This document shows positions 3,951 through 53,670 of a DNA stretch of 64,000 bases, in pieces. A program made the translations under genes and the position numbers. Numbering within the stretch: position 1 is the stretch's first letter; each line of letters starts with the position of its first letter. The notes below the pieces were generated by a model. That model was given only the letters and a program-made list of their open reading frames with translations. It searched no databases and was not told the DNA's origin. Source of the stretch: an uncultured Clostridium sp. (GTDB lineage Bacteria > Bacillota > Clostridia > TANB77 > CAG-508); contig CANPNZ010000004.1 of assembly GCA_947575605.1 (NCBI GenBank), positions 21,258 to 85,257 of the forward strand, in the 5' to 3' direction.

Positions 3951-5189
3951 ATGAAAGCAAAAGATAAAGGAAGAAGAACACATATGAAAATTACATTAAA
4001 AAATATCATTACTTTTTTAGGTCTTATTATAAGTTTATTATATATCGTTATATTTTATAACTATTATTTTGGAAGAAACAATGTATATGCATCAGAAACC
4101 CTAGCCAATATAGAAGAAAACCCGATTAGTCAAGCAGAAGAAATTGACATAGAAGAAATTATTAGGCAAAACACCAAAGAAGGGCAAAAAGAAGAATATA
4201 GTGTAGAAGAAGCCACCTTAGAATACATAACGAAATACAGAAATAATGCCAATTTACCAAAGGGACAAATGCAAGTGGTACAAGAAGGAAGAGAAGGAAA
4301 GCAAGAAATTACAACCAAAAGAATTTATCAAAAAGAAGAATTAATAGGAGAAGAACAAGTTGCTAGTAAAGTAACCAAAGCTTCTGTCAATAAAATTGTG
4401 GAAATTGGTACAGGAAATTATACCAGCAATTATAAAGTAAAAGTAGGAGACAAATTATATGTAACATCTGACCGATTATCTGTTATGGTAGAACCAAATG
4501 AACAATCACAAAAGATAGCCACATTAATCAAAGGCAATGAATTAAAACTATTAGCTATTGAAAACGATTGGTATCGAATATCCAGCAATAGTACCATTGG
4601 GTATGTAAAGGCGGAAAGCACGACTTACTTAGATACCAATAAAAAAGAAGAAATACCAAATACAACAACAGCACAAACCAAAGGACAATTGACTTCTAAA
4701 TTAAGCTTTGATATGGCTTTAAATCAACCAAGTGGATTAACCTTAGAACAATTTAAAAAGATTTTAACCGATAACAAAGATACTAATAAAATATTTAGTA
4801 ACAACGCAGAATACTTTTATTACATCGAAAAGCAATACAACATTAATGGCGTTTTTGTAGCAGCAGTTGGCATTCATGAAAGTGGATGGGGAACTTCACA
4901 AATTGCCAAAAATAAGAATAACTTATTTGGTTATGGTGCCTATGATTCTAACCCATACAATGGGGCTTATAGCTTTTCTGATTATTCAGAATGCATTGAT
5001 TTAATCGCTAGAGTATTTGTAAAATATTATATTAATCCAAAAGGAACTAGCATATACGGAGGCGAAAAAGCAATGGGAACCTATTATAATGGACCAACTT
5101 TAAGTGGTATCAATACCAGATATGCAACCGATAAGAATTGGGCTAATGGCGTATATAAGCACATGAAATATTTATACAATAAATTATAA
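3951..5189 (+). CDS. cell-wall hydrolase: TM anchor, G5 domain, SH3b domain, N-acetylglucosaminidase domain
   Basis: G5-like QVVQEGREGKQEITTKRIY...EIGTG. SH3b-like GDKLYVTS...WYRISSNSTIGYV. Glucosaminidase AAVGIHESGWGTS...NLFGYGAYD. ATG at 3951 preferred over TTG at 3930. Confidence 0.8.
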   Translation: MKAKDKGRRTHMKITLKNIITFLGLIISLLYIVIFYNYYFGRNNVYASETLANIEENPISQAEEIDIEEIIRQNTKEGQKEEYSVEEATLEYITKYRNNANLPKGQMQVVQEGREGKQEITTKRIYQKEELIGEEQVASKVTKASVNKIVEIGTGNYTSNYKVKVGDKLYVTSDRLSVMVEPNEQSQKIATLIKGNELKLLAIENDWYRISSNSTIGYVKAESTTYLDTNKKEEIPNTTTAQTKGQLTSKLSFDMALNQPSGLTLEQFKKILTDNKDTNKIFSNNAEYFYYIEKQYNINGVFVAAVGIHESGWGTSQIAKNKNNLFGYGAYDSNPYNGAYSFSDYSECIDLIARVFVKYYINPKGTSIYGGEKAMGTYYNGPTLSGINTRYATDKNWANGVYKHMKYLYNKL

Positions 5190-5195
5190 AAATTC

Positions 5196-5378
5196 AAGTT
5201 TCAACTTTTTGCAAGTTAAGGTTGTGATATATAATTTTTTACACTTTGTGTGTCGCAACTTCCTAAATAAAAAACAATTAGTCAGTTGCTCCAATTGCAC
5301 TCGCATAGCTCGTTTGGTCGCTTACGAAGTAGCTCAAAATTATATATCACAACCTTAACTTGCAAAAAGTTGAAACTT
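5196..5378 (+). repeat. family-B element copy 1: 97-nt conserved non-coding core (5239-5335) between perfect 43-bp inverted arms
   Basis: Arms 5196-5238 and 5336-5378 are exact reverse complements. The core shares ACACTTTGTGTGTCGCAAC, GTTGCTCCAATYGCACTC and TCGTTTGGTCGCTTA with the copies at 47.95 kb and 58.5 kb. Confidence 0.85.
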
Positions 5379-5418
5379 AAATATAAAAAAATCTTGCTAT
5401 TTTTTTGAATTTATTGTA

Positions 5419-5427
5419 TGATATAAT
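5419..5427 (+). promoter_or_regulatory. extended -10 element upstream of the 5487 operon
   Basis: TGaTATAAT at 5419-5427. No good -35 at 17-nt spacing. Confidence 0.4.
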
Positions 5428-5486
5428 GGCAAGAATGAATAGAAGGAAAAAATACCAAAAGAAGACCGATAGAAAGGGGCAAAATC

Positions 5487-5894
5487 ATGAAAAAAGGAAT
5501 GATAATTCTTACAATTATTGTGCTAATTATGGGAATATTATTGATAGCCAATAAAACCTATGCAGAAGACAAAGCAATTGATGACAAAACAGAAAGTAAA
5601 ATTGTTGAAATAAAAGACAATGCCGTTAAAACATTAGATGATTATAAAGTAAAATATGGGTCAGATACCTATGGAACCGTTGCCTATATTTTAAATCTTG
5701 TGCGAATTTATAGTATACCAATATGCTTTTTAGGAATTGCCATTGGCGCAATTCATCAATATGTAATAGGTATTAGAAAGTTGGACACATTGGAAAGAGG
5801 TATGGCATTTATTGTAACATGTGTAACACTTTTAATTATATGCCAAGTTTTACCACTAGCTTTTGCAGTGTTTGTAAAATTTGGAAGGGGGTAA
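5487..5894 (+). CDS. small membrane protein (signal peptide plus two C-terminal TM helices)
   Basis: 135 aa. N-terminal signal-like MKKGMIILTIIVLIMGILLIANKTYA and two hydrophobic segments. Good RBS. Its stop lies 3 nt before the next start. Confidence 0.65.
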   Translation: MKKGMIILTIIVLIMGILLIANKTYAEDKAIDDKTESKIVEIKDNAVKTLDDYKVKYGSDTYGTVAYILNLVRIYSIPICFLGIAIGAIHQYVIGIRKLDTLERGMAFIVTCVTLLIICQVLPLAFAVFVKFGRG

Positions 5895-5897
5895 CAA

Positions 5898-8615
5898 ATG
5901 AAAGTCTTATTTGCTGTAAGTAATGAAGAGATATCAGAGTCAATCGTAAAAAAATATCAAAAGGAATATAAACAAATTATTTCTTATAAAAATGTATATT
6001 ACTTTAACGCAATATTAAAGGAATTACAAAAAGATAAAACTTATGACAGAGTAGTTATAAGCGAAGATTTAGAAGCTTTTACACACACACAATACGACCA
6101 AATAGATAAATTTATTTTTGAAAAAATGGATAGTATCAGTGATGAAGCTTCTGATGTAAAAGGAAATGACACGCCAATCATCGTAATTTGTGCTGACAGA
6201 AGAACAAAATCAGAACCAATGCTAGTAAAATTATTTGGAATTGGCATTTATAACGCTATTATTGGAAACGATAGAAGTGTAGATGAAGTATGTAGATTGA
6301 TCAACAGACCACGTACAAAAAAAGAAGCAAAAGCCTATTATAAAATAGATAGCGAAGATGTAGGATATCAAGCTGAAAATGAAAATGATGTCAGTGAAAT
6401 GGAAATCCAAAACATAGTTGCTCATTATAAAAGATTAGGAAAAAACGAAGAACGTTATATTGATAGCTTTAATAATATAGCTGCACAATATAATGACACA
6501 CAATTAAGAATTATTACCAAATTTTTACCATTAAATGTGCGTGCTGTATTAGAAGAAAGATCTTCTAAATATCAGCAAATTATGTCTTTTAATAATGCTG
6601 TTTCTGACAGTTTACGAAAAAATAAAAACGAAGAAGAGAGCGATGGACCAAGTCAAGTATTATTAAAGTCAAAAAATAGAGATACTGTACTATCTAAACC
6701 AGTGGTAATACCATCAGCGGTTAATATGAGTGGAACCAAAAAATTAGCAAAACATAAGCCAGTAGAACCAATGAATAACTATGAACAGCCACAGGAACAA
6801 CAAGTACGACCTACTATACAACCTAATATCAGACAACCAGAGCCACAAAAAGTAGAAACCTCTGTACCAATGATAGAAGGATTAGATGATTTTGAAGATT
6901 TTGTACCAGAACCAATGACACAAGAACCAGTTAATCAAAAACCAGTGATACAAGAACCAGTGGTACAAGCACCAGTACAAGAAAGAATAGAACCAGTAAT
7001 AGAACAACCAGTAATCAAAGAGCCAGTGGTACAAGAAACCATACCAACAGAGCCAGTCATAGAAGGACTAGAAGAACCTACCACCCCAGAACCAGTACAA
7101 CCAGTAAAAAGAGGAAGAGGAAGACCAAGAAAAAATCCGATTCCAACAGAACAGCCAGATAAACCAAAAAGAGGAAGAGGAAGACCAAGAAAAAATCCAT
7201 TACCAGTACAAGAAGAAGTAGTACCAGTACAAGAACCAGTACAAGAAGAAATGGTATTACCTGGATTGGAACCACAAGAACAAACACAAATTCCAGAATC
7301 AAACTTCTTACCAGGTTTTGAAGAAGTGGAAGTACCAGCACCACAAACAGATACAACTATTGAGACAGAAAGACCAGATCCATTTTTACCGGGATTTGGA
7401 AACGAAGAGCCAGAAGAAAATAACATGGTATTACCTGGATTTGAAGACGAAGAACCAGAAGAAAACAACATCGTATTACCAGGATTCGGTGAGGAAGAAC
7501 CAGAAATACAAAAACAACCAAGTATACCACAACAACATTATGATACACCAACACCAGATCCATTTATATCACAACAAGAACTAGCACAATCAGAACCAGA
7601 GCCATTTATGCCAAATAATAATTATGAAACCAATTCTTATAACCATGATAATTATAATAGGAATTCATTTAATCCAATTAATACCAATAATCACAGAGAA
7701 TTAGAAGAAAGTTATGAAGAAATTGACTTATCAAATTTACTAACGCCAGACAAAAAAATTGTTACTTTTGTAGGAACTAGTAAAAATGGAACCTCATTTA
7801 TTGTTAATAATGTAGCAGAATTATTATCTTCTATTGGTATTAATGTGGCAGTTTTAGACACCACACAAAATAGAAATTCTTATTATATTTATACAAAAAA
7901 TGAAGAAGATTTGAGAGAAATAGCAACTCATAGTATAGAAGGACTTGCTCAAGGAGTAGCAAGAGGAATTGAAGTGCATAAAAATCTTACGGTTTACACT
8001 TCCTTACCAGACGATGAAAATACCATTAACCATGTAGACAAAATACTTGAAACTTTATTGCAAAAGCATTCTTTAATATTAATTGATACAGATTTCAATA
8101 CGCCACGTGGTTATTTCAAACAATCACAAGAAACGTATTTAGTACAAAGTATGGACATTTTAACCATACAACCACTTACCGCATTCTTAAAAGAATTAAA
8201 GGCAAAAAATATATTAGATGAAAGAAAATTAAGAATTGTTTTAAATAAAGTAGTAAAAATTAGAGGAATAAAGCCAGCAACTATTATAGGAGGAATGGCA
8301 TTCTATAATGATCCAGCCATGTCTTTTATGACAGAATTATTTGATCGAGATCGAATTAAATATGTTTCGATACCATTTGAAGAAGAAACTTATATTCGTT
8401 ATTTGGAAGGTATTATAGAATGTGAAATTTCGCAAAAAGGATATTCCAAAATATTTTTACAAACATTAAGAGAATTAGGAAATATGATTTATCCAATTGT
8501 AACATCAGCACCTAGAAATAATAAAAACTATCAACCACCATCAGCTGGAGCCAATGGAGGCGGTAATTTTTCTTCTAGTATGAATGATACCTTAAACAAA
8601 ATGAGAGGTTTCTAA
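5898..8615 (+). CDS. 905-aa multidomain protein: receiver-like N-terminus, Pro/Glu/Gln-rich linker with two AT-hooks and LPGF repeats, C-terminal ParA/MinD-like domain with a degenerate P-loop
   Basis: N-terminus has a CheY-like pattern (KVLFAV...VVISEDL...IIVICA). KRGRGRPRKNP occurs twice. LPGF(E/G)xEEPEENN occurs four times. C-terminus KKIVTFVGTSKNGTSF...VAVLDTT...LILIDTD is ParA-like but lacks the P-loop Lys. Confidence 0.7.
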   Translation: MKVLFAVSNEEISESIVKKYQKEYKQIISYKNVYYFNAILKELQKDKTYDRVVISEDLEAFTHTQYDQIDKFIFEKMDSISDEASDVKGNDTPIIVICADRRTKSEPMLVKLFGIGIYNAIIGNDRSVDEVCRLINRPRTKKEAKAYYKIDSEDVGYQAENENDVSEMEIQNIVAHYKRLGKNEERYIDSFNNIAAQYNDTQLRIITKFLPLNVRAVLEERSSKYQQIMSFNNAVSDSLRKNKNEEESDGPSQVLLKSKNRDTVLSKPVVIPSAVNMSGTKKLAKHKPVEPMNNYEQPQEQQVRPTIQPNIRQPEPQKVETSVPMIEGLDDFEDFVPEPMTQEPVNQKPVIQEPVVQAPVQERIEPVIEQPVIKEPVVQETIPTEPVIEGLEEPTTPEPVQPVKRGRGRPRKNPIPTEQPDKPKRGRGRPRKNPLPVQEEVVPVQEPVQEEMVLPGLEPQEQTQIPESNFLPGFEEVEVPAPQTDTTIETERPDPFLPGFGNEEPEENNMVLPGFEDEEPEENNIVLPGFGEEEPEIQKQPSIPQQHYDTPTPDPFISQQELAQSEPEPFMPNNNYETNSYNHDNYNRNSFNPINTNNHRELEESYEEIDLSNLLTPDKKIVTFVGTSKNGTSFIVNNVAELLSSIGINVAVLDTTQNRNSYYIYTKNEEDLREIATHSIEGLAQGVARGIEVHKNLTVYTSLPDDENTINHVDKILETLLQKHSLILIDTDFNTPRGYFKQSQETYLVQSMDILTIQPLTAFLKELKAKNILDERKLRIVLNKVVKIRGIKPATIIGGMAFYNDPAMSFMTELFDRDRIKYVSIPFEEETYIRYLEGIIECEISQKGYSKIFLQTLRELGNMIYPIVTSAPRNNKNYQPPSAGANGGGNFSSSMNDTLNKMRGF

Positions 8616-10965: not shown

Positions 10966-11094
10966 ATGTCCATTGGGGACGGTTCTAAATGGACATCGCT
11001 GTCAAGTTGCCATAGGGGACGATCCTTTTTGGCAACTTTCTTGTTATTGAATTAAATTAGTAATGTCCATTAAGAACCGTCCCCAATGGACATT
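10966..11094. repeat. family-A hairpin repeat cluster (three TGGGGACGG-core hairpins; the outer two are inverted)
   Basis: 10966-10996 ATGTCCAT-TGGGGACGGTTCT-AAATGGACAT. 11006-11036 GTTGCCA-TAGGGGACGATCCTTTT-TGGCAAC. 11062-11094 is the reverse complement of the first. Confidence 0.85.
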
Positions 11095-12374: not shown

Positions 12375-13526
12375 ATGTCGGTAAAAAAGATAAAAGAACT
12401 AGGAAAAGTGCATTCAAAAGAAAATTTCGAAACATTGTTAAAATTGTACAAAGAAGATATATCAATTGAGGAAAAAAGAGAAGTGGTTTCTTCAATTGGA
12501 AGGCAGAAAGATGAGGAAGCTATTTACAAATTTTTAGAAGAAAATGCATTTAAGAAAAACTATATGGATATAATTTATCAAATGTTTAGGACATGCTTAG
12601 TATATTATAAAAATGAAAAATTTAAAAAACTGTGTGATAAAATGAAATCATATTATAATAACGAGATTATGAATAAAATGTATGAATATAAAATGGCACC
12701 AAAATTTAATGCTAAAAAAGTATTTCATAAGAGTTCTATTACAAAGCCAACACTATTAGAAGGAAACAATATAGAAACAATCAAAAAAATTAAGGATGGT
12801 GATATACATTTAATATTTACTTCACCTCCATACTATAATGCACGTGAATATTCAGATTATATCAATTATCAAAAATATTTAGAAGATTTAAAAAAAGTGT
12901 TTATAGAGTGTAATAGAGTATTGGAAGAGGGTCGTTTTTTAATAGTAGATATTTCACCAGTTATTACCAAAAGACCTGGTAGAGAATATGAATCGATTCG
13001 TTATCCGATTCATTTTGACTTACACAATGTTTTGGTAGAATCAGGTTTTTATTTTATCGATGAAATAATTTGGGAAAAACCAGAACCTTCTGTGCCTAAT
13101 AGAATAGGTGGATACATTCAAACTTTGAATCCTTTGGCCTATAAACCAAATTGTGTTACAGAAAGTATAATGGTTTATCGAAAAAATTGTAATTTTTTAT
13201 TGGATTATAACATAAATAAATATACAACTAAAGAAGACTATAAAAAGAATGATAATACAATAGATCGTTCTAATATATGGAAAATTGCTCCATCCAGTAA
13301 TAAAAATCATCCAGCTATATTTCCAGAAGATTTATGTAAAAAAATACTTAAATATTATTCGTATAAAGGAGATGTTGTCTTAGATCCTTTTGCTGGAATT
13401 GGTACTTTTGGGCGAGTAGCTAATGAAATGGGTAGAATTCCAGTGTTATGTGAAATAAATGAAAAATATATTGAAATAATAAAAGGAGATAATATTTATG
13501 ATGACATTTCAAAAACAAGTAATTGA
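12375..13526 (+). CDS. beta-class N4-cytosine/N6-adenine DNA methyltransferase with an N-terminal helical (HEAT-like) extension
   Basis: Motif IV TSPPYYN precedes motif I VLDPFAGIGT (permuted beta order). HPAIFPEDL. About 130 aa of extra N-terminal helical repeats. Confidence 0.85.
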   Translation: MSVKKIKELGKVHSKENFETLLKLYKEDISIEEKREVVSSIGRQKDEEAIYKFLEENAFKKNYMDIIYQMFRTCLVYYKNEKFKKLCDKMKSYYNNEIMNKMYEYKMAPKFNAKKVFHKSSITKPTLLEGNNIETIKKIKDGDIHLIFTSPPYYNAREYSDYINYQKYLEDLKKVFIECNRVLEEGRFLIVDISPVITKRPGREYESIRYPIHFDLHNVLVESGFYFIDEIIWEKPEPSVPNRIGGYIQTLNPLAYKPNCVTESIMVYRKNCNFLLDYNINKYTTKEDYKKNDNTIDRSNIWKIAPSSNKNHPAIFPEDLCKKILKYYSYKGDVVLDPFAGIGTFGRVANEMGRIPVLCEINEKYIEIIKGDNIYDDISKTSN

Positions 13527-14376
13527 TAATACCATAGAAAAATTATTAAAAGGACAAGATTATCGTGAAGAAGTTATTAATGCGATTAATGCGGAATTTT
13601 TTGATTTTGCCATTTCATTTTTTAAGGAAATTGTAAGAGCCAAATTAGATTCCGAAGAAATAAGTCTAGAGTGGTATAAAAGATATTTTATAAATAATGA
13701 TGACTTTAGCCCAGCAGATAGTGCGATTTTTGCTGGAATGAATAAGAAAACAATCACTAATATTTATGGAACTGCTTCAAAAGAAGTAGTTTTAGATGTT
13801 GCCAATACGAATTTTGATTATCTTTCTACTTTAGTAGAGGAATTAAAACAAGATAGTTCTGATGAAATAGGAATTTCTATAAAACTTAATTATAAAGAGG
13901 TTTATGTAGAACTCAATTTAGCAGAAAGCTTGTTAGTGATTAATGCATTAGCAACCAAGAAAGCAGCTATTAGAGGAGGTGCATGGAGTTCAATTGGTAA
14001 AAAAGTGGAAAAACCTTTAGTTACTAAATTATGTATACTAAGTGGTGTTCCTAAAGAATATATGGATTCCAGTATTTTCACTAGAAATATGGAACTTGAT
14101 TATGATAGGGAAGTAGATTATAAGTTATTTGATATAGATAGGAATTATATACGTGTAGAAGTAAAATTAATGGGAAGAGGCAACCCTGAGAGTGCAGATG
14201 TAATTTATGCTAGGGATACAAGGTTATTTATTGCTGATACATTAAGTCAACAAAATAAAAATCAATTTGATAGTAATAATATTCCCTACATCGAAATGAA
14301 AAATAATAAAAATGTTCTTAGTGATTTTAAAAAAGCTTTAAGAAAACTAAAAGTTCCTTATACAAAATGTAACTAA
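13498..14376 (+). CDS. putative type II restriction endonuclease partnered with the methyltransferase
   Basis: Overlaps the MTase gene by 29 nt. RBS AAAGGAG. Candidate PD-(D/E)xK signature ..EVDYKLF..x..IRVEVKL. No other recognisable family. Confidence 0.55.
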   Translation: MMTFQKQVIDNTIEKLLKGQDYREEVINAINAEFFDFAISFFKEIVRAKLDSEEISLEWYKRYFINNDDFSPADSAIFAGMNKKTITNIYGTASKEVVLDVANTNFDYLSTLVEELKQDSSDEIGISIKLNYKEVYVELNLAESLLVINALATKKAAIRGGAWSSIGKKVEKPLVTKLCILSGVPKEYMDSSIFTRNMELDYDREVDYKLFDIDRNYIRVEVKLMGRGNPESADVIYARDTRLFIADTLSQQNKNQFDSNNIPYIEMKNNKNVLSDFKKALRKLKVPYTKCN

Positions 14377-15999: not shown

Positions 16000-16828
16000 C
16001 ATTTACTTGATTATTAAGTTTCTCAAAGCTAAAAACATTTCTATATCTTGCATTTACTGACTTATTAGTTATACTACTGAAAGCTAAAAACATTTCAACT
16101 TTTTTCATTTCCTACTATTATTTTCTTGTTTATATTTCTTCTAATCTTCCCTTTATTACTTAATATATGTATGTATTTATTCTATTAGATTTTACTTGTC
16201 CGCTTCTTATTGTTATTCTTACTTTAATTGTTGTTTATTTCCTCTTCAAGCATTGTTTATTCATTTACTGGAAAAGGTTTTGCTCAAAACTGAAAAACTT
16301 GTTTAAAGTCTTTCTTAATCTAAACTAATTATTGTTACTTTTTAGTATTTATTTCTTTGATTTTTTCTTTTAATGTATTAGAAACATCTTCCAACAAACG
16401 AGATATATCTATTACCATTATTTTTATATATTCTTTGTCATCATCATTATAGTATTTAATCTGTTTTAGTTGTTGCATTATTTCCCTTACTTGTTTTCAT
16501 ATTTTATCAAAAGCCTTATATATATTAACTCTTGTTTCTTCTTCCTTTATTATTCTTACCATTTCTATTACCTACTTTCTTATATTTTCACTAATTCGGT
16601 TATTCTTTATCTTAAACTTATCTTATTTCAGTTGAAAATTGTGTTTAAGAGTTGTTTATTGTTTTAGTGGGAAAGGTTACGGCTCAAACTAGAAAAATGC
16701 TTAAAAAGTGTTATGGACTGTTATTGTATTATTGATAGATTTATGCTGATATTAGTTAATTTAAGACATAAGAAAAACCAGTTAACTTAATAACTGGCTT
16801 ATATAATGTTTATATTGATTTTTATGTA

Positions 16829-17470
16829 TTATTTTTCTACTTCTATTGATACAGAACAACCATAGTCACTTTCTGAATTAAGACGAGTATGTAGTCCTTT
16901 TACATTTGTATCTAATGGTAAAGCATCTATATCTTCTGGATTAGCTCTATTTGTAGCTACATATATTAGCTTGTCTATAAGTACATTTTCCATTTTGCCT
17001 ATATCTTCATAGCTCTTTTTATTTGCTAATGAAATATATGAAAATGTGATTTTCTTAGTTTTGCCATTTAATAAAGTGATTTTTGCTACTATTTTATCAA
17101 CACCACCATCAAGCATATAAAATTTTTCTGTACTAGTAGAGTCCGAAGCTTTTTCAAATTGACTTTTATTTTTATTAAAAGCTTCTGCAATTAATGTTAG
17201 TGTTTCTTGCTCTGTAAGTTTAAGTGTAAAATCATTTGTATCAATGAAATCGTAGTATTCTTTTTCTTTGACATTATCTATAGCAGTATTGGTTTTACTA
17301 TTTTCTTGTGAAATAGGTTTTTGTGGTACATTGGAGCTGATAGAAATAATGACAGAAATAACAATTATAAATAAAAAAGCAACTAGTCCAATTTTTATTA
17401 TTTTCTTATTACCAAACATAATAACACCTCCTTTTCTTGTTATATGTGTATTAAATAAAACTAACAACAT
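16829..17470 (-). CDS. hypothetical membrane-anchored protein (island)
   Basis: 213-aa ORF with an N-terminal TM helix (IGLVAFLFIIVISVIISI). The real start is probably the internal MFGNKK. Confidence 0.55.
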   Translation of the reverse strand: MLLVLFNTHITRKGGVIMFGNKKIIKIGLVAFLFIIVISVIISISSNVPQKPISQENSKTNTAIDNVKEKEYYDFIDTNDFTLKLTEQETLTLIAEAFNKNKSQFEKASDSTSTEKFYMLDGGVDKIVAKITLLNGKTKKITFSYISLANKKSYEDIGKMENVLIDKLIYVATNRANPEDIDALPLDTNVKGLHTRLNSESDYGCSVSIEVEK

Positions 17471-17575
17471 TATAATATACTTACTTTATTTATTCAAGTA
17501 TTATTTATATTTCTTAAAGTATTGTTTTCTTATATTAAACTACCATTTTGTGTAAAATGCTCAATAGGTGATAAT

Positions 17576-17917
17576 ATGAAAGAAAACAAAGAAAATTCCT
17601 TAAAAGTTATAGGTCAAAATATCAAGCGAATACGAGTATTGAAAAATCTCACACAAGAACAACTAGCAGAAAAGCTAGATAAAAGTATAAATTTCATTAG
17701 CTTAATTGAGAGGGGCGAAAGTGGTATCAGCATTTCTACTATTATAGATATATGTAATGCACTTCAAATCAACTCTGATGAACTATTTAATGGCTTAATA
17801 GATAAGCAAGTTATTACAGATGATGAGTTTATTACTAATTCCTTAAATATGTTCAACAGAGAAGATAAGAAAATTGTTAAGGGACTTATTGAATATATCA
17901 TTAACTCTAAAAAATAA
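17576..17917 (+). CDS. XRE-family helix-turn-helix transcriptional regulator
   Basis: IGQNIKRIRVLKNLTQEQLAEKLDKSINFISLIERGESGISISTI is a classic Cro/C1 HTH. ATG at 17576 with AGGTGA. Confidence 0.85.
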   Translation: MKENKENSLKVIGQNIKRIRVLKNLTQEQLAEKLDKSINFISLIERGESGISISTIIDICNALQINSDELFNGLIDKQVITDDEFITNSLNMFNREDKKIVKGLIEYIINSKK

Positions 17918-17919
17918 TG

Positions 17920-18186
17920 CTATTGTTCTATATTGTCTAAATTGAAATTACATAGCTTTATTCCTAACGATAACCCTCTAAAAAACATTTGCTTGTCTAT
18001 ATCATTATCTAATTCGTGTGCAAGACTGCATAATTCATCTAAACTATCAAGATTTTGATTTTCTAGGTGTTCTATGAAGTCTTGTTTTGCTTTCTCTAGT
18101 TTTTCTAGGTCTTGCTTGTATTTTTTAGTAGTTGGTTCTTCTAATACTATGTCATATAAATTTAAGATAATTTCATTATCAGTCAT
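17920..18186 (-). CDS. hypothetical small acidic helical protein (island)
   Basis: 88-aa ORF with RBS AAAGGAG, convergent with the XRE gene. Confidence 0.5.
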   Translation of the reverse strand: MTDNEIILNLYDIVLEEPTTKKYKQDLEKLEKAKQDFIEHLENQNLDSLDELCSLAHELDNDIDKQMFFRGLSLGIKLCNFNLDNIEQ

Positions 18187-18349
18187 AATTTGCTCCTTTC
18201 CGTATTTTATTATGTAGCCTACACTCTAATAATAACTTAATTTGTCAAAAAATGAAATTCACCTTCTAAAATCTAAAAAATTTTTAATCTCTGTAAGTAT
18301 TGAGAAATCAACAAAAAGTTGATATGAAAAAATTTTTATGAAAAAAGTA

Positions 18350-18378
18350 TTGACGTGTATGTAAATTTATGATAATAT
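18350..18378 (+). promoter_or_regulatory. sigma-A promoter with extended -10 upstream of the HsdS-like gene
   Basis: TTGACG (18350-18355), 17-nt spacer containing TG, TAATAT (18373-18378). Confidence 0.5.
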
Positions 18379-18414
18379 GTATGTAAAATTAAATGTAAAG
18401 GAAAGGAAAAATAC

Positions 18415-18999
18415 ATGGATACTATGAAATTAGGAGAGATTTGCAAAATTTCCCGTGGGTTTAACTATGCTAGAAGTGAAGTTTGCAAAGAAAAATTTAA
18501 TTATTATTCAGCACCACAAATAGGGTATAAAAATGTTGATGAGGAAGGCTCATTTGAAGAAAGTGAAGAAATGATTTTGATTAGAAAAGAAACTGCTGAT
18601 AGATATTGGGTTAAAAGAAACGATATAATTTTACCACCAACAACTAAAAGTCCTCCTCGTGCAAAAGGAATTGCTAGTTATTTACCAGATGAGGAAGAAT
18701 TAAAAAAACTCATATACTCACAAAATGTTGTATTTATTAGATTAGAAGAAAATGCACCAATTACAAGTCTTGAATTGATTACACTACTAAATACAAAAAA
18801 GATACAAAAATCATTACTAGAAAAAGTTTACACGGATTCAGAAATAAAGTCAATTTCACTTGAAAAATTGAAAAACTTTGAAATACCAATATTAAGTGAT
18901 AGGCAAAAGAAAATTTTAACTAGATATATTGAAATTGATAAGAAATTTCATCAAGCTAAAAGAACATTAGAAGAAGAATTTTGGGAAGAAGATTTTTAA
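18415..18999 (+). CDS. half-size type I restriction-modification specificity (HsdS)-like protein, single target-recognition domain, orphan
   Basis: N-terminus KLGEICKISRG resembles an HsdS TRD start. C-terminal helical conserved-region-like segment. No hsdM or hsdR in the window. Confidence 0.5.
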   Translation: MDTMKLGEICKISRGFNYARSEVCKEKFNYYSAPQIGYKNVDEEGSFEESEEMILIRKETADRYWVKRNDIILPPTTKSPPRAKGIASYLPDEEELKKLIYSQNVVFIRLEENAPITSLELITLLNTKKIQKSLLEKVYTDSEIKSISLEKLKNFEIPILSDRQKKILTRYIEIDKKFHQAKRTLEEEFWEEDF

Positions 19000-19114
19000 T
19001 AATAAAAAAGCAAGAATTGCTGGAACAACCCTTGCTTTAACAATTTAATATAACTATGCTATGAAAGTATATACTAAACTCTAACTAATTTTATTATATA
19101 CCTTCGTTGCATAG

Positions 19115-19154
19115 TCTGTCAAGTATGGCTTTTTGTTATACTGACAGATTTTTT
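19115..19154 (+). terminator. hairpin plus T-run downstream of the HsdS-like gene (terminator, or a candidate Rep origin hairpin)
   Basis: TCTGTCAAGTAT/ATACTGACAGA stem with one bulge, 11-nt loop, TTTTTT tail, 120 nt upstream of rep. Confidence 0.45.
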
Positions 19155-19274
19155 AATGGAGGTTATTTTTTATGTTTGTAAATGAAAAATTAAGAAGATA
19201 TATTCAAGAATTAGTAGAGTTAGTTGCTAACTCAAAATACTTCCCTATGAAATTTTACATAGGAGGTGATTATT

Positions 19275-20153
19275 ATGACAGAAAAAGAAGAAAATAAACC
19301 AGTTTATTACTGCATACCTAACAAAACACTCAAACTTGATGACTGCGATAGTGTATCTTTCTTTGAGTTCCCTACTCACATTGAATCAACCAGTCGAACA
19401 TATACTCGACACTTTAGGACAAAAAAAGAGATACAAAATGAGTTGAACTACTGGAAGAAAAGAAAGAGATATGCACTTAATGAAGAACAAGAAAAAGAAA
19501 TTGCTGAAAAGATTATAGCACTTGAAAAAGAACTACAAGAAAGAAAGCAAATTCACAAACCAAGAAAGAAAACAGCAACAACAAGAATTACAAATATAAC
19601 CAGTTTAGAACGCTCAAAAAAGAGATTAGTACATTTACTATATAACAACTTTGCTGTCCCTTTCGCACTGCATATTACACTGACATACGCAAAGAAAAAA
19701 TATTCATATTCTACTGTGTGCAAAGACTTTAGTAAATTTAGAAAAAAGCTGTGCTATCGATTTAAAAAGGTGGCTTTTATAGCTATTTATGAACCTCACG
19801 AAGACAGTTCTTGGCACATACACTTGATACTGAAAAACTGCAAAGGAGTCAAAAGAGTATTACTGGAAAACTTATGGCAAAAAGGTAGAGTGGATTTGGA
19901 AAGGTTCAATGTTGAAGCGAGTCCTTATTTCTGTAAATCTGAAAGGCTTGAAAGTTATCCAGTAAATGCACGATTATACACCAAAAGCAAAAATGTTAGA
20001 CCTCCCGTTGAGCAAAAAACAGATATACAAAGCTTTAAACGAAAAGTAAATGGAATGAACTGTATATCTCAAGAGGGCAAACGATTAGTTGTCGAAGAAA
20101 AAGGTAAAAAGAGAGTTCTTAACAACTTTTTATTCCAAAAATACACAAAGTAA
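19275..20153 (+). CDS. HUH-type rolling-circle replication initiator (Rep)
   Basis: ALHITLTY (motif 1-like), SWHIHLILK (HUH), downstream Tyr candidates (SPYFCKSE / RLYTKSK). ATG at 19275 after AGGAGG. Confidence 0.65.
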   Translation: MTEKEENKPVYYCIPNKTLKLDDCDSVSFFEFPTHIESTSRTYTRHFRTKKEIQNELNYWKKRKRYALNEEQEKEIAEKIIALEKELQERKQIHKPRKKTATTRITNITSLERSKKRLVHLLYNNFAVPFALHITLTYAKKKYSYSTVCKDFSKFRKKLCYRFKKVAFIAIYEPHEDSSWHIHLILKNCKGVKRVLLENLWQKGRVDLERFNVEASPYFCKSERLESYPVNARLYTKSKNVRPPVEQKTDIQSFKRKVNGMNCISQEGKRLVVEEKGKKRVLNNFLFQKYTK

Positions 20154-20201
20154 ATGACAAAATTAAACAAGATTAAATAAAAAGAAAAGAGGTAATGAAA
20201 T

Positions 20202-20555
20202 ATGGTAGAGATAAAAACAAATCTTGGTCAAGCGGGAGAATACGAATTAAAGACATTCAAAAATAAACTTAAAAAGATAAAAAAGGACTTGGGAATATCG
20301 CAAGATACAAGTTTGAAAGATAATAATATAATAAAAAGAAAAGAAGAATTAATGATACTTTCATATATAATAAATCAAACTATTTTGTATGGTTTATCTA
20401 TTAACTGGTTTTGTGAAGAAGATTCTGATTATATATATGACGAATTATCAAACATATCAGAGAGAATATCAAAAGTAGATAGTAACTTAACAGATATATA
20501 TACAACAATAATGAAATCTATTAATAATAATAATTGTGCATTAAAACAAAATTAA
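20202..20555 (+). CDS. hypothetical protein (island)
   Basis: 117-aa ORF with RBS AAGAGG. No recognisable motif. Confidence 0.45.
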   Translation: MVEIKTNLGQAGEYELKTFKNKLKKIKKDLGISQDTSLKDNNIIKRKEELMILSYIINQTILYGLSINWFCEEDSDYIYDELSNISERISKVDSNLTDIYTTIMKSINNNNCALKQN

Positions 20556-20578
20556 GTAAAAAGAAAGGAAGAAAAATT

Positions 20579-20929
20579 ATGGTAACTTTAAGTGAAAAAG
20601 AAAGAGAAAATGAAGTAAAGAAATTTGATAGGAAAATCAAGAGAATTACACAAAATTCAAATGTAAATTGCGATGTATCTGCACAAGAAAAATACATCGT
20701 AGAAAAGAAAAGAAACATATTGGAATTGAACAATTACATACGTATATTTCACAATGCAGTAGAAAGAGGACCTTATAATCCATTTATTCCTATTGTAGAA
20801 AGAAATGCTATATTAAGAAATTTGTATAAGATAACTAGTAAATTATACTCCATAGATTATTCACTAGAAGATGAGTATAAGGCGTCTATACTAGCACATC
20901 AATGGATAGAAAGTAATAAAAATAGTTAG
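20579..20929 (+). CDS. hypothetical protein (island)
   Basis: ATG at 20579 after AAAGGAAG; 116 aa. Confidence 0.45.
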   Translation: MVTLSEKERENEVKKFDRKIKRITQNSNVNCDVSAQEKYIVEKKRNILELNNYIRIFHNAVERGPYNPFIPIVERNAILRNLYKITSKLYSIDYSLEDEYKASILAHQWIESNKNS

Positions 20930-20967
20930 GAAAAACAAAATCACTAATATAAATTGGAGGTGCTATT

Positions 20968-21117
20968 ATGCAAAGTGATGAACAAGAAAATCTACAAGAA
21001 TTATATTCAAGTGAAGATGAAATGATTATGACAGAAGATATAGAAAACCTACTAAATGAGTGGTTAAATGAATTTGAAACACAACAACAAGAAGATACAA
21101 CAAGCAAGTTTCCTTAA
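20968..21117 (+). CDS. hypothetical small acidic protein (49 aa, below the ORF-track cutoff)
   Basis: ATG preceded by TGGAGGTG. MQSDEQENLQELYSSEDEMIMTEDIENLLNEWLNEFETQQQEDTTSKFP. Confidence 0.4.
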   Translation: MQSDEQENLQELYSSEDEMIMTEDIENLLNEWLNEFETQQQEDTTSKFP

Positions 21118-21237
21118 TGGTATTAAAGAACATTGGTAGGTAAAGTAAAAATGCTTGGACTATGTATTATTACTTAAATATATAGTTCAAGCTAAATATT
21201 AAACAAAATTTCTAAAATAAGAAGGTGAATTAGTGTT

Positions 21238-21495
21238 ATGAGCGAAGTTAATTTATTAGAGGAAGAACTTTTACTTGATGACAAACAAGTTGAAATGTTA
21301 GCCTTTGCTATTAAACCAGAAGATATTAAAAATTATATCAATGAACATAAAGAAGAATATAGACCTTGGTTATTCAGTGAGTATTTTACAGAGCTTAACA
21401 GAAAATATAACTTAATTACTCAAGATTTTATTAGTAAAATGTATGAGTCAATAAGAGAACCATACACGAATCTAAAACTAATGTTAAAAAAATAA
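21238..21495 (+). CDS. hypothetical protein (island)
   Basis: 85-aa ORF with RBS AAGGTG, immediately upstream of the recombinase. Confidence 0.45.
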   Translation: MSEVNLLEEELLLDDKQVEMLAFAIKPEDIKNYINEHKEEYRPWLFSEYFTELNRKYNLITQDFISKMYESIREPYTNLKLMLKK

Positions 21496-21518
21496 ATATG
21501 AAAAGGAGATAATGAAAA

Positions 21519-23065
21519 ATGGAAGATATATGTGCATATTACCGTTATAGTTCAAAAAAACGTCAAAATGAAACTTCAATAACTGCTCAGAGGAAAATTT
21601 GTGAAGAGTGGGCAAGAGCTAATAATTACAATATTGTTAGAGAGTATGTAGATGAAGGTATTAGTGGAAAAGATAGTAATTCTCGACCACAGTTTATGAA
21701 AATGATAGAAGATAGTTCAAAAGGAATTTTCAAGAAAATAGTAGTTTACCAATTAGACAGATTTGCACGTAATCGTTATGATAGTGCTAATTATAAAGCT
21801 AAACTAAAAAAGAATGGTGTTAAAGTTCTTTCTGCAAAAGAAAATATTTCTGATGACGCTTCTCGGAATTTTAGTAGAAAGTGTGCTTGAAGGTATGGCT
21901 GAATATTACTCTGCTGAATTATCACAGAAAGTAAATAGAAATATGCTACTAAATGCAGAGAGAGGACAATTTAACGGTGGAAAACCACCACTTGGCTATA
22001 AATTAGAAATACAAGACTTTGGAAACTACAAGAAAAAGAAACTTGTCATTGATGAAAATACAGCACCTATCGTTCAAGCAATATTTAAAATGAGAGCAAA
22101 CGATATTCCAGTTGTAGAAATTATAGATTTTCTTAACAAGAATGGGTATAAGACAGGAAAAGGTACCAAATTCAATAAAAATTCACTACAAAACTTATTC
22201 AAAAATAAGAAATACATAGGAACAAATACCTTTGGCGAAAAAGAATTTCCTAATACGATACCAGCTATAATTGACATTGAAACTTTTAACAAAGTTCAAG
22301 AAGTTAGAGAAAAATACAAACATGCTCCGGGAATTAGAAAAGCAGAAGATAGATACCTACTAACTGGAAAACTATTCTGTGGAAAGTGTGGTAGCAACTA
22401 TGTGGGGGTATCACGGAAACTCTAAATGTTCAAATACATATAGATATTATAGATGTACTAAAAGAAATGAAAAGGGTTGCAAGAATAGAACTATACCCAA
22501 AGAAATAATTGAAGACAAAGTAATAAGAAAACTAAAATCTTTGTTAACGGAAAAGAACATTGAAAAGATAAGTAAGAAAATATATGATACTTGTCAAAAG
22601 GAAAATAACTCTAATGTAGTGATTAAAAACCTAGAAAAGAAAGAGAAACAACTTCACAAGAAAATAGATAACTTAATGGAAGCATTAGAAAATGGACAAC
22701 ATATAGATATGATAAGTCAAAGAATTACACAAAATGAAAAAGAACTTGAAGAAACACAAAGTCAATTTTTACTAGAAATGGCAAAAATATTCAAACTTTC
22801 TGAAAAAGAAATCAAATTTTTCTTGACCAGACTACAAGATGGTGATATACTAGACAATAGTTACAGAAAAGTGCTAGTTGATATGCTAGTTAATTCAATA
22901 CTTGTTTATGACAATGAATTAGTAGTAATCTGTAATGTTGGAAACAAGCCAATATCTTTAACTATTGACTTGATTGAAGATATAGAAAGTAATTTAGTAA
23001 CTGAACCTTTTACGTTTGTAAAACGGTTCGGTTCACCAAAGATTAAAGGAGACATTTATAAGTAA
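21519..23065 (+). pseudogene. large serine recombinase, interrupted by two +1 frame breaks, both at in-frame CGG (21864 and 22414)
   Basis: Catalytic YYRYSSKKRQ...VVYQLDRFARN, then ...DDAS|GILVESVLEGMAEYYS. Recombinase domain and zinc ribbon CGKCGSNYVGVS|GNSKCSNTYRYYRC. Coiled-coil C-terminus. Three track ORFs join cleanly. Confidence 0.85.
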
Positions 23066-23167
23066 TTGCTAAATAAATATTAGAAATTAAAAGGGAGTAG
23101 CTTTTTATTACTAATCAACAGTCGCGATATGAAAATATCTGGTTAGTAAGACTATAATAGTTAAGCG

Positions 23168-23285
23168 AGACTTTTAAAAAGAATCCTAGAGATTCTTTTT
23201 AAAAGTCTTATTTATATGATAGGAAAGTTCTCCAAACTTTCTATCATATAAACATTTTGTACACAAATTTGCTAAAGCAAATTTG
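23168..23285. other. three consecutive palindromic hairpins at the right flank of the island
   Basis: 18-bp perfect stem 23168-23208, 16-bp stem with one bulge 23213-23250, 9-bp stem 23264-23285. Confidence 0.7.
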
Positions 23286-23417
23286 CTACACGAACAAAAA
23301 TGGGACATCTAAGTTTATTTAAAAGGTTAAGAAAATTTAATCATGCCCCTTTTGTTCTTAATATTTAGTTATAAAAGTTTAAAAAATGTAAAAAATAAAA
23401 ATAAAGGAGTGGAAAAC

Positions 23418-26141
23418 ATGGAAAACAACAAATGGTTCAACCAAGAAATTGAGGAAGTAGAGAAAAAACTACAAACCAATCAAGAGAAAGGATTAGAAAC
23501 AGAAGAAGTCAAAAAAAGGCAAGAAAAATATGGATTAAATCAATTAAAAGCAGGTAAAAAGAAAACATTAGTACAAAGATTTGCCGATCAATTCAAAGAC
23601 TTTTCGATTATTGTCTTAATCATAGCAGCTATTGTATCAGGAGCAGTTGGAATTGCTGAAGGAGAAGGAATTACCGATACCATTATTATTTTAATAGTAG
23701 TTATCGTAAATGCTGTAATAGGGGTAACACAAGAATCCAAAGCAGAAAAATCGTTAGAAGCCTTGCAAAAATTAACAGACCATGCTTCCAAAGTTATAAG
23801 AAATGGGGAAGTTATTGTTATACCAGCTAAAGAATTAGTACCAGGAGATATTGTAGTATTAGATACAGGAGACTATATTCCAGCCGATTTAAGAATCATA
23901 GAAGCAGTCAACTTGAAATCACAAGAAGCATCGCTAACAGGGGAATCTGTACCAGTTGAAAAATCCATTCAAAAGATTGAAGGAGAAGAAATTGGGATTG
24001 GTGATCGTGTTAATATGTTATTCTCTTCTAGTTTAGTTACTTATGGGAGAGGAAAAGGAATTGTAGTAGAAACAGGAATGACAACAGAAGTGGGAAAAAT
24101 TGCAGGAATGATTAATAATACTGAAAAACAGGAAACACCATTACAACAAAAATTAAATAAATTAGGAAAAACATTAGGAATCGCAGCATTAGCCATTTGT
24201 GCTTTCATTTTTGTTGTTGGATTACTACAAGGAAAAGAACCAATCCATATGTTTATGACAGCTGTAAGTCTTGCCGTTGCAGCCATTCCAGAAGGATTAG
24301 TTGCTGTATCTACTATTGTTTTAGCCATTGGCGTACAAAAAATGGTGAAAAAGAATGCTATTGTAAAAAGATTACCTGCGGTGGAAACCTTAGGAAGTGC
24401 AACGGTAATTTGTTCGGATAAAACAGGAACTTTAACACAAAACAAAATGACAGTTGAAAAAATATTTATAAATGGTAAAACAGAAGATTTAGAAAGTATA
24501 AAAGAAATCAATGATGATATCAACAAATTGGTATATGCTAATATGTTATGTAATGATACCAAAATAGCAAACGATGGAACCTTAACAGGAGATCCAACCG
24601 AAACAGCGTTAGTCGATATGGCATTTAAATTAGATTTTGACCCAAGTATTTATGATAGAACCCCACGTTTAAATGAGATACCATTTGATTCTGATAGAAA
24701 GTTAATGACTACTATAAATGAACAAAATGGCAAATATATCGTTTATACCAAAGGAGGAGTTGACGAATTATTAAAAAGATGTCATTCTTATCTATTAAAA
24801 GGAGAAATTAAGCAAGACTTACAAAATTATGCGATTACCATTCAAAACCATAACGAAGAGATGGCAAAAGAAGCACTAAGAGTATTGGCATGTGCTTATA
24901 AAGAAATCGACCATAAGCCGAGTCAAGAAGAAATAGAAAACATGGAAAAAGATTTGACATTTATTGGCATGGTAGGAATGATTGACCCACCAAGAGAAGA
25001 AGCAAAAGTAGCAGTAGAAAAATGTAAAACAGCTGGTATTAAAACGGTAATGATAACAGGAGATCATAAAATTACAGCAACAGCGATTGCCAAAAAATTA
25101 GGTATTTTAGAAAAAGAAGAAGAAGCCATTACAGGATTAGAACTAGAGAAAATGTCAGATGAAGAATTAGAAAAGAAAGTTAGACAATATGCTGTCTATG
25201 CCAGAGTATCACCAGAACATAAAGTAAGAATTGTAAAAGCGTGGCAAAAAAATGGAGAAATTGTTGCCATGACAGGTGATGGTGTAAATGATAGCCCAGC
25301 CTTAAAAAAATCAGATATTGGCTGTGCGATGGGAATGGTAGGAACCGATGTAGCCAAAGAAGCAGCTGATGTTATTTTAACTGATGATAACTTTGCAACT
25401 ATTGTATCAGCCGTTGAAGAAGGAAGAAGAATTTATGACAATATACTAAAAGTAATTCAATTCTTGTTATCAAGTAATGTAGGAGAAATTGTAGTATTAT
25501 TTTTAGCCACTCTTTGTACGCCATTATTTGCTACTTGGTTTGGCGTTACTGATAGCTCTCATTTGGAAATTTTATTGCCAATTCACATTTTGTGGATTAA
25601 TTTAGTAACAGATTCCCTTCCAGCCTTAGCCTTAGCTTTTGACTCAGCTAATAGCGATATTATGAAACGAAAACCAGCTAAACCAGGTAAAGGCGTATTT
25701 ACGAAAGGAATGACTTGGCGCGTGATTTATCAAGGAACGATGATAGGATTTTTAACACTGGCAGCCTTCATGATTGGTTTAGCAACAACAAACACACCAA
25801 TTGATGGATTAACTTTAGATGAATCAAAAATAGAAGTGGGGCAAACGATGGCTTTTGTAACACTAGCTTTATCTGAATTAGTACATGTATTTAATGTAAG
25901 AGATAATAAAAAATCATTGTTCAAAACCAAAGTATTTAATAATACAAAATTAATTTGGGCGATTGTAGCATCTGCCGCTTTAATGTTTGTTATTCTAGCA
26001 ATACCAGCTTTACGAACGATATTTAGCATACCAATACTTCCAACTGCTAATATCATAGAATTAGTGTGCTTGATTTTTGCTCCTCTTGTGATTGTTGAGT
26101 TCTTTAAGTTATGCAAACTTAATACAACAAAAGATGAATAA
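23418..26141 (+). CDS. calcium-translocating P-type ATPase (P2A/P2B type)
   Basis: ICSDKTGTLTQN, MITGDHKITA, TGDGVNDSPALKKSDIG, 10-TM architecture. ATG at 23418 after AAAGGAG. Confidence 0.9.
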   Translation: MENNKWFNQEIEEVEKKLQTNQEKGLETEEVKKRQEKYGLNQLKAGKKKTLVQRFADQFKDFSIIVLIIAAIVSGAVGIAEGEGITDTIIILIVVIVNAVIGVTQESKAEKSLEALQKLTDHASKVIRNGEVIVIPAKELVPGDIVVLDTGDYIPADLRIIEAVNLKSQEASLTGESVPVEKSIQKIEGEEIGIGDRVNMLFSSSLVTYGRGKGIVVETGMTTEVGKIAGMINNTEKQETPLQQKLNKLGKTLGIAALAICAFIFVVGLLQGKEPIHMFMTAVSLAVAAIPEGLVAVSTIVLAIGVQKMVKKNAIVKRLPAVETLGSATVICSDKTGTLTQNKMTVEKIFINGKTEDLESIKEINDDINKLVYANMLCNDTKIANDGTLTGDPTETALVDMAFKLDFDPSIYDRTPRLNEIPFDSDRKLMTTINEQNGKYIVYTKGGVDELLKRCHSYLLKGEIKQDLQNYAITIQNHNEEMAKEALRVLACAYKEIDHKPSQEEIENMEKDLTFIGMVGMIDPPREEAKVAVEKCKTAGIKTVMITGDHKITATAIAKKLGILEKEEEAITGLELEKMSDEELEKKVRQYAVYARVSPEHKVRIVKAWQKNGEIVAMTGDGVNDSPALKKSDIGCAMGMVGTDVAKEAADVILTDDNFATIVSAVEEGRRIYDNILKVIQFLLSSNVGEIVVLFLATLCTPLFATWFGVTDSSHLEILLPIHILWINLVTDSLPALALAFDSANSDIMKRKPAKPGKGVFTKGMTWRVIYQGTMIGFLTLAAFMIGLATTNTPIDGLTLDESKIEVGQTMAFVTLALSELVHVFNVRDNKKSLFKTKVFNNTKLIWAIVASAALMFVILAIPALRTIFSIPILPTANIIELVCLIFAPLVIVEFFKLCKLNTTKDE

Positions 26142-49772: not shown

Positions 49773-49783
49773 GTTGCCAAAGG

Positions 49784-49814
49784 GTTGCCAATGGGGACGG
49801 ACCTTTTTGGCAAC
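49784..49814. repeat. family-A hairpin directly after the fhs stop
   Basis: GTTGCCA-ATGGGGACGGACCTTTT-TGGCAAC, preceded by a partial GTTGCCAA at 49773. Confidence 0.8.
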
Positions 49815-49844
49815 TTTGACAAGTTTAAAATGGAGGAGCAAAAA

Positions 49845-50498: not shown

Positions 50499-50550
50499 AT
50501 ACATATGAAATCAAGAATAATAAGATCTAAAAAAGACAAAGGAAGAAAAA

Positions 50551-51735: not shown

Positions 51736-51895
51736 AGTTGCCATATAAAATGGCTTAATACCCGACACTTTTCTTACACCTATAAAATTAAAAAATGTCG
51801 GATATTAACACAAAATGGAAACTTATTCACAAGAACAATTGATAAAAAAGAAAACATATGATACATTTTAGGTAGAGAAAATAAAGGAGAAATAT

Positions 51896-53631: not shown

Positions 53632-53670
53632 CCAATTCTTTTCCAACCAGATTTGTGCCTTGAGGAAGGA

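Follow-up and report, generated by a model that had tools for sequence, protein, structure and literature searches.

A probable new superfamily of IS4-type miniature transposable elements with an unusually conserved structured core in uncultured gut Clostridia

We describe here a family of mobile DNA elements, Family-B, found in a 64,000-nt stretch of the genome of an uncultured Clostridium sp. (contig CANPNZ010000004.1 of assembly GCA_947575605.1, positions 21,258 to 85,257; hereafter the window) and in other uncultured Clostridia of the gut. The element is very probably a non-autonomous IS4-type miniature transposable element with inverted repeats (MITE) of these bacteria, with a long self-complementary stalk and a nearly invariant, folded core of ~95 nt, and it represents a new IS4-type MITE superfamily whose structured core is unusually well conserved. 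What sets it apart is an inverted pattern of conservation, in which the apex of the hairpin is invariant, the stalk is random, and the ends differ by subfamily. An earlier reading of the window from its letters alone (the original prediction) had noticed three copies of the core, one of them at the centre of a perfect 43-bp palindrome, and had proposed either a small RNA released from a double-stranded stalk or a non-autonomous mobile element of the single-stranded DNA (ssDNA) type. The second proposal was partly right: the element is mobile and non-autonomous, but its target-site duplications, terminal inverted repeats, and IS4 ends argue against the ssDNA type.

All three core copies in the window lie on the + strand (5239-5335, 47952-48049, and 58485-58582) and are ~97 nt long, with an asymmetric core of ~95 nt across the family. 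The 19-mer ACACTTTGTGTGTCGCAAC has three exact matches in the window against zero expected by chance, and TCGTTTGGTCGCTTA also matches exactly three times. A covariance model trained on 108 copies and run over the window with filters off matched these three copies only, at 111.7, 112.3, and 122.2 bits, respectively; the fourth-ranked match scored 17 bits. Exact-match counts and the covariance model thus bear out the positions first proposed. As had also been observed, each copy follows the stop codon of a + strand gene (at 5189, 47909, and 58453) and has a T-run before the core. The copies and their parts are as follows.

5185-5192, no strand: left target-site duplication of copy 1, TATAAAAA, overlapping the stop codon of the upstream glucosaminidase gene
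5193-5238, + strand: left arm of copy 1; its outer portion is the subfamily (a) terminal inverted repeat, TTCAAGTTTCAACTTTTTGCAAGT, and its inner portion a copy-specific stalk with TATAAT and a T-run
5239-5335, + strand: core of copy 1, made up of the closing helix, the conserved TTGTGTGTCGCAAC, the variable hairpin, GTTGCTCCAATTGCACTCGC, the mini-hairpin, and GCTCGTTTGGTCGCTTACG
5336-5381, + strand: right arm of copy 1, the reverse complement of the left arm with a single mismatch at the outer end
5382-5389, no strand: right target-site duplication of copy 1, TATAAAAA
47930-48071, + strand: copy 2, with its core (47952-48049) between perfect 22-bp arms (47930-47951 and 48050-48071)
58479-58586, + strand: copy 3, with its core (58485-58582) and residual arms of only ~12 bp, the left arm being lost or degenerate

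In copy 1, the two 47-nt arms (5192-5238 and 5336-5382) are separated by 97 nt and contain one mismatch; their inner 43 nt are perfect, as the original prediction had it. The entire element has a predicted folding energy of -81.3 kcal/mol (z = -14.5). Copy 2 lies between a DUF212 gene and fhs, and degenerate remnants of its outer arms reach ~47915 and ~48085. Copy 3, which has an ABC transporter gene on one side and an AraC-type gene on the other, has lost its arms and has the highest core score of the three.

The element is mobile DNA, as its terminal inverted repeats, target-site duplications, empty sites, and IS4-identical ends demonstrate. Terminal inverted repeats, occupying the outermost 14-25 bp, bound the palindromes in many copies and genomes, and they come in three related types, TTCAAGTTTCGAC..., GTTACTGGTCAGCC..., and CAATGCTGTCAACTTAAGG. 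Type (a), carried by copy 1, is TTCAAGTTTCGACTTTTTGCAAGTG; type (c) is GTTACTGGTCAGCC / GTTACTGTTCAGAC; and type (e) is CAATGCTGTCAACTTAAGG. The end sequences named for the element also include CAATGCTGTCAAC, beside TTCAAGTTTCGAC and GTTACTGGTCAGCC. Flanking direct repeats that agree at 8 of 8 positions were found at seven copies, where random pairing of left with right flanks would give 0.2; duplications include ATAATGAA, TTTACTTA, ATAAATTT, AAAATCAT, TTTTTTGG, and AATTTTCT. At (a) and (c) types the duplications are mostly 8 bp and range up to 11 bp. When the end of the (e) copies is taken as CAATG...CATTG, the duplications are of 10 bp, matching at 10 of 10 positions in one locus (GTAAATTCTC in L070; L numbers denote stretches retrieved from other assemblies and metagenomes) and at 9 of 10 in two others (L027 and L101).

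Related genomes also preserve sites that lack the element. At the place of copy 1, the syntenic L055 has a single TGTAAAAA followed directly by ATTCTTGCT and the same downstream sequence; the copy 2 site comprises only 35 bp in the syntenic L014; and the syntenic L107 has no copy at the place corresponding to copy 3. The window, in turn, is empty at places where L055 and L014 have copies, the one in L055 with the duplication AATTTTCT. No strain-level empty sites for copies 1 and 2 were found among conspecific assemblies, and both copies are fixed in the species. Scans for end motifs far from any core yielded only two derivatives. One is an (a)-type copy from which the core and the inner right arm have been deleted (L041:116-190), and the other is a coreless 63-bp (c)-type element whose 8-bp duplication, ACTACTTA, is perfect (L109:1543-1605).

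The (e) ends connect the family to a known group of transposons. A scan of metagenomes for this end returned 43 stretches from very different habitats, none of them with the core. Among them, L155 is a 1.86-kb insertion sequence with the (e)-type end AATGCTGTCAACTTAAGGT at both termini; its 491-aa open reading frame (ORF) matches NCBIfam transpos_IS4_1 at 122.9 bits (cutoff 115) and Pfam DDE_Tnp_1 at 5.9e-15, and contains the Y-2-R-3-E-6-K signature. The AT-rich IS4-type elements L136 and L173-L175 have an identical (e) end. On sequence grounds, the element falls within the definition of a MITE, and at least subfamily (e) can be placed with the IS4-type elements. Members of the IS4 family duplicate ~10 bp of their target (PMC2266710).

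Mutually unrelated small MITE families are bounded by the (e) end CAATGCTGTCAACTTAAGG as well (L131, L139, L146, L161, and L170; L142, L147, and L162; L133; L135/L152; L172). They come from termite-gut, sediment, and other metagenomes, and show duplications of 9-10 bp such as CAGAGGAACC, CATAGGGAAC, CTAATGGGAG, and CCCCTTGCCC. The (e) end type appears to be a widely reused MITE chassis.

Among the systems close to the element are the IS4 family and its non-autonomous derivatives (in the Bacillus cereus group, for instance, IS231 and the MIC231 cassettes): CAATGCTGTCAACTTAAGG is identical to the ends of L155, L136, and L173-L175. Similar to these, subfamily (e) has ~10-bp duplications and a non-coding, passenger-like centre between transposase-type ends. 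The element differs in having no transposase, in stalks far longer than the usual IS4 terminal repeats, and in the mostly 8-bp duplications at its (a) and (c) ends. Its centre, moreover, is no gene but a conserved structured 95-nt module. The ends presumably also resemble the IS231 repeat CATGCCCATCAACTTAAGAA. Possible resemblances to the ends of IS1, IS6/IS26, and IS66, to dif/Xer, CIRCE, and cre sites, and to the CS-6 motif of ssoA were set aside as unproven or weak. The IS6/IS26 end consensus is GGTTCTGTTGCAAA (PMC6807381).

A pattern scan of species-representative genomes gave at least 109 stretches, of which 80 loci were listed. All of the matches listed are metagenome-assembled genomes (MAGs) of uncultured gut Clostridia from rabbit, mouse, human, and goat; at least 29 assemblies are represented among the 80 loci, with at least 10-12 copies in single MAGs. 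With the covariance model, 113 copies were recognized in the window together with 99 of the loci from the genome scan, and the other loci yielded 22 more. The original prediction had called for a covariance-model search of relatives, and at least 130 copies beyond the window were found in at least 29 of these MAGs, with the covariation persisting. The 22 additional copies include two that are 5'-truncated and abut stop codons, beginning right after the stop codon of the host gene (L048:5391-5527 and L103:6226-6368). Only one of the 121 copies extracted lies inside a long ORF; the others are intergenic, and the genes that flank copies are unrelated housekeeping genes. Clustering the ORFs of ~0.8 Mb of flanking loci revealed no transposase, recombinase, or HUH gene that recurs near copies. 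No blastn match to the element was found in PLSDB plasmids or INPHARED phages, and the core pattern had zero matches in viral contigs. Many Logan short-read contigs of the window species (L114-L118 and L124-L129) stop within copies 1 and 2 or at their borders, de Bruijn assemblies being systematically broken by the palindromic repeat.

The element is 110-250 bp long and non-coding. No ORF is conserved, in agreement with what the three window copies had suggested, since indels in the variable loops disrupt every frame. Every intact copy has the same layout from the outside in. The ends are followed by 20-64 bp of stalk and by a semi-conserved TATTAT and T-run (mirrored by an A-run and ATAATA on the other arm); next come a small internal loop, the closing helix of 5 bp (ACACY/RGTGT, ATAAC/GTTAT, or ATGCC/GGCAT), and the core. 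The core itself runs from TTGTGTGTCGCAAC through a variable hairpin, GTTGCTCCAATCGCACTCGC, and a mini-hairpin of 2-5 bp to GCTCGTTTGGTCGCTTACGC, with an additional hairpin of ~50 nt between TCGTTT and GGTCGC in ~10% of copies. Apart from this ~95-nt core, no part of the element is conserved in every subfamily and species. The unpaired blocks of the core are 96-98% identical throughout, and copies that lie between the same two genes, with flanking proteins 65-88% identical, have the core blocks in common and no arm, closing-helix, or hairpin sequence. One truncated copy has a decayed core block.

Two helices had been proposed for the core on the basis of three copies, and both held in the larger sample. 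The helix that pairs the two ends shows double changes at five of five pairs in the 113 model-aligned copies (one pair, for example, is CG 55 / UA 37 / AU 17), with 99% of cells paired. The covariation score is 0.241; shuffled data give 0.097, with none of 500 shuffles attaining the observed value, and slid partners give no more than 0.059. The stem within the 25-nt variable segment covaries in ~110 further copies too, with a hairpin-closing pair that is CG in 65 and UA in 42. A DNA palindrome would be expected to give the same covariation pattern as an RNA fold.

The best-surviving rival to a MITE is that the core is a family of small structured RNA genes of ~100 nt, expressed either from a stalk promoter or within a 3' untranslated region and excised by RNase III or Mini-III, with the transposon ends serving as a vehicle. 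We consider this possible, if rather unlikely. The core blocks are nearly invariant in at least 29 species while their surroundings are saturated, the two helices covary, copy 3 keeps the core without arms, and the added hairpin of the ~50-nt insertion variants shows one compensatory change, all of which would suit an RNA gene. So would the conserved G·U pairs (GUGUG/CGCAC and UGUG/UACG), which exist on the + strand only. Against it, the minus strand folds equally well or better in 85 of 117 copies, and one strain lineage (four assemblies) is fixed for a degenerate 5' block where copy 1 lies. Rfam also offers no family: the window returned only tRNAs at the gathering threshold, and E-value scans of copy 1 and of the long variant returned only spurious long-hairpin microRNA models, in line with the earlier failure to match the core to any known RNA family.

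The perfect stalk is maintained at the DNA level. Between copies, the arm segments lying 26-45 nt away from the core show 32% identity, where 30% would be expected at random; within a copy, only 71 of 3670 arm pairs are mismatched (~98% complementary). Selection on an RNA helix would tolerate G·U and purge A·C, and the expected excess is not seen: G·T and A·C mismatches number 26 and 19 in the arms, and 49 and 45 in the variable hairpin, and neither difference is significant. Four conspecific assemblies (L120-L123) offer a closer view of copy 1. Over window positions 5170-5500, their flanks are 100% identical to the window, with ~20 changes confined to the 55 nt of the 5' core block and variable hairpin; two further differences fall in the left outer arm, where the letters of the window exactly complement the right arm. 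This pattern points to recent patch-wise gene conversion, with another copy and the opposite arm as donors. Copy 2, which was present in all of the conspecific assemblies found, has a similar patch polymorphism. Inner segments also flip. L094 (4020-4310) and L098 (1470-1760), with flanking proteins that are 95-98% identical in amino acid sequence, have the element at a common site, but its inner ~200 bp run in opposite directions within the 28-bp outer repeats (GGGACATGGGGACGTAGATTATGTCCCT), and in subfamily (c) the core occurs in both orientations relative to asymmetric arm spacers (L085 and L011). Arm-to-arm recombination, by conversion and inversion, therefore accounts for the perfect 43-bp palindrome of copy 1, with no need for selection on an RNA helix.

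The orientation of the core is strongly biased. Between co-directional genes, 62 copies are in sense and 19 in antisense (p = 1.8e-6), and relative to the majority gene orientation of their locus, 50 copies are co-oriented and 12 are not. The sense bias favours an RNA gene, while the ~23% of copies that are antisense to neighbouring genes count against one. Expression signals are similarly divided. A σ70-like site, TTTGCA-16-TATAAT, points into the core of copy 1 from both arms (the left-arm site, at 5208-5235, ends ~7 nt before the core) and would be in keeping with an RNA gene; it is restricted to subfamily (a). Across copies, there is no enrichment of a -35 element at 16-18 nt from the semi-conserved TATNAT (2.74 against 2.73 in the control), and no terminators were found in the elements. 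A general promoter role and a terminator role were both rejected on these results.

Several observations weigh against the interpretation of Family-B as IS4-type MITEs moved in this host. No autonomous IS4-type element was found in the ~0.8 Mb of loci flanking copies in the same Clostridia genomes, so that mobilization in trans in this host is deduced, and the (a) and (c) ends, including that of copy 1, matched no transposase-bearing element. The full-length IS4 copies in metagenome contigs mostly have no clean duplications, and the IS4 transposase homologues, which lie on short contigs, do not connect the transposase with the host clade. Normal MITEs are best conserved at their ends, Family-B in its core, and a model of purely selfish DNA leaves that unexplained. 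The survival of the core without arms in copy 3 hints at selection on the core that is independent of mobility. Finally, ~93% of the genes in these genomes are co-oriented, and the + strand of the window is the leading strand (GC skew +0.17), so that the 62:19 bias cannot be attributed to transcription in preference to replication.

Some of these points would be met if the ~95-nt core were a functional, strand-specific nucleic-acid module hitch-hiking on several transposon chassis, either a new structured RNA or an ssDNA signal on the lagging-strand template. As an RNA, it could, for example, be an element that affects processing or stability, or be excised from the stalk and bind protein. Purifying selection on such a function, and not transposition, would explain near-invariance in at least 29 species, arm-less survival, and the 3:1 bias. 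We rate this reading as unlikely, slightly below the RNA gene.

The preferred interpretation, an IS4-type MITE with a structured core, suggests the following mechanism. Copies would be mobilized in trans by IS4-type transposases through double-strand cut-and-paste; insertion duplicates 8-10 bp of target DNA. The stalk sequence drifts, its halves being kept matching by arm-to-arm and copy-to-copy conversion and by flipping of the inner segment, while the core may have spread between chassis by nested insertion or conversion. The core may be read strand-specifically, given its 3:1 orientation bias to the sense/leading strand. In read-through transcripts of host genes, the element would form a duplex of ~45 bp capped by a multi-helix junction, and this capped duplex might be a Correia-like substrate of RNase III or a structure of the mRNA or transcript end. 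We consider action in read-through transcripts the most likely role of the core. A cis-acting site needed for mobilization is the alternative that we rank second, and an ssDNA signal on the lagging-strand template has a low probability.

In several respects, the family recalls the Correia elements of Neisseria (CREE/NEMIS) and the ERIC, BOX, RUP, and bcr1 repeats, MITEs of bacteria whose RNA folds. These too are intergenic repeats of 100-200 bp with inverted ends and target duplications, present in tens of copies; MITEs of the Correia type are co-transcribed with their neighbours and have predicted long hairpins, and RNase III acts on the Correia hairpins, which can also provide promoters. Correia-type MITEs, however, conserve the whole element and especially its ends, whereas Family-B conserves only the apex and has a random stalk. 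Correia elements duplicate TA, and both the length of the duplication and the transposase family differ from those of Family-B.

Another possibility is that the elements are invertible DNA switches (invertons), in which the arms recombine and the orientation of the core alters the expression of neighbouring genes. Similar to the RecV-dependent switches of C. difficile, Family-B has an asymmetric intergenic segment of ~100-200 bp between inverted repeats, with one inversion observed (L094/L098); the ~95 nt between its inverted repeats also resembles the size of those switches. The same-site inversion, the two core orientations in subfamily (c), and the opposite orientation of some nearby copies would fit. 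We nevertheless think this improbable. Both orientations at one site were seen only between related species-level genomes and not within a population, copies 1 and 2 having a single orientation in all conspecific assemblies, and long perfect inverted repeats flip passively. Family-B, unlike invertons, is multi-copy and mobile, with repeats specific to each copy. Its arms differ wholly between copies, hence there is no common recombinase site, and no dedicated recombinase gene recurs near them; neither a supported promoter or terminator in the core nor one that depends on orientation was detected. Target-site duplications and transposase-type ends would also be left unexplained.

Least probable is an element of the ssDNA type, either a REPIN/PATE-like hairpin moved by an HUH (IS200/RAYT) enzyme or a dispersed, sso-like single-strand initiation signal on the lagging-strand template: in about three quarters of copies that template carries the + strand of the core, stalk changes are compensated as in REPINs, a semi-conserved TATTAT and T-run adjoins the apex, and the window encodes an HUH Rep (REP_ORF2-G2P) at 19266-20153, but HUH transposition yields neither 8-10-bp duplications nor true IS4-identical terminal repeats, no IS200/RAYT-like gene recurs near copies, no similarity to plasmids (sso-bearing ones included) or phages was found, and neighbouring copies in opposite orientation exist. 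REPINs, the REP doublets moved by RAYT, do share with Family-B long, dispersed intergenic palindromic hairpins whose two arms change in step. They differ in that their REP arms are conserved and the loop varies, with HUH-dependent movement and no target duplication, whereas Family-B has a conserved loop, varying arms, duplications, and IS4-type ends.

A second repeat family is present in the window (probably "family A" of the original prediction) at 10966-11093, 49778-49815, 54922-55072, and 63458-63537. Its unit is the hairpin TTGCCAATGGGGACGGACCTTTTTGGCAA, found singly or as inverted pairs of 31-49 nt around a centre of 53-66 nt. Related GGGACAT/GGGGACG motifs are often the outermost layer of Family-B copies elsewhere (L004, L013, L064, and L094), which shows that the two repeat families nest. 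Compared with the syntenic L014, where fhs is followed by one MITE and then a uvrA-like gene (window position 63560), the window has an extra segment of ~13.7 kb at ~49780-63540, with a Fic-like gene, a permease, ABC exporter genes, and an AraC regulator. It is bounded by two direct family-A units that are 95% identical, and may be an island inserted or recombined at a family-A repeat.

Three further features of the window are worth recording. The gene just downstream of copy 1 (ORF 5898-8615, 905 aa) contains imperfect tandem repeats with a 15-nt period, seven of them in register at 6860-7051, and more short direct repeats to ~7510; the repeat region (6860-7510) encodes stretches rich in proline, glutamate, and glutamine. 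The 295-aa ORF at 19266-20153 matches Pfam REP_ORF2-G2P (2.6e-11), the rolling-circle Rep of filamentous phages and plectroviruses. It lies within a region (~16800-26100) with a small XRE-type ORF (17522-17917) and several short ORFs, which may be an integrated inovirus-like prophage. At 12375-14376, an N4/N6 DNA methyltransferase gene (PF01555, 4.9e-42) adjoins one for a CfrBI-type restriction endonuclease (PF09516, 7.4e-36), and the two are a type II restriction-modification pair.

For annotation, these repeats, which fragment short-read assemblies of an abundant uncultured clade of gut Clostridia, can now be labelled as IS4-type MITEs instead of unknown RNAs. They also provide a natural example of long perfect palindromes that are kept by DNA conversion and inversion while their sequence drifts to randomness. 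The puzzle they pose is an internal 95-nt fold that is far better conserved than the ends bound by transposase, and that is common to chassis with different ends. If the core is an RNA or ssDNA signal, it would be a functional non-coding module that transposons have spread through operon junctions, and mRNA processing or polarity would probably be affected in dozens of housekeeping operons.

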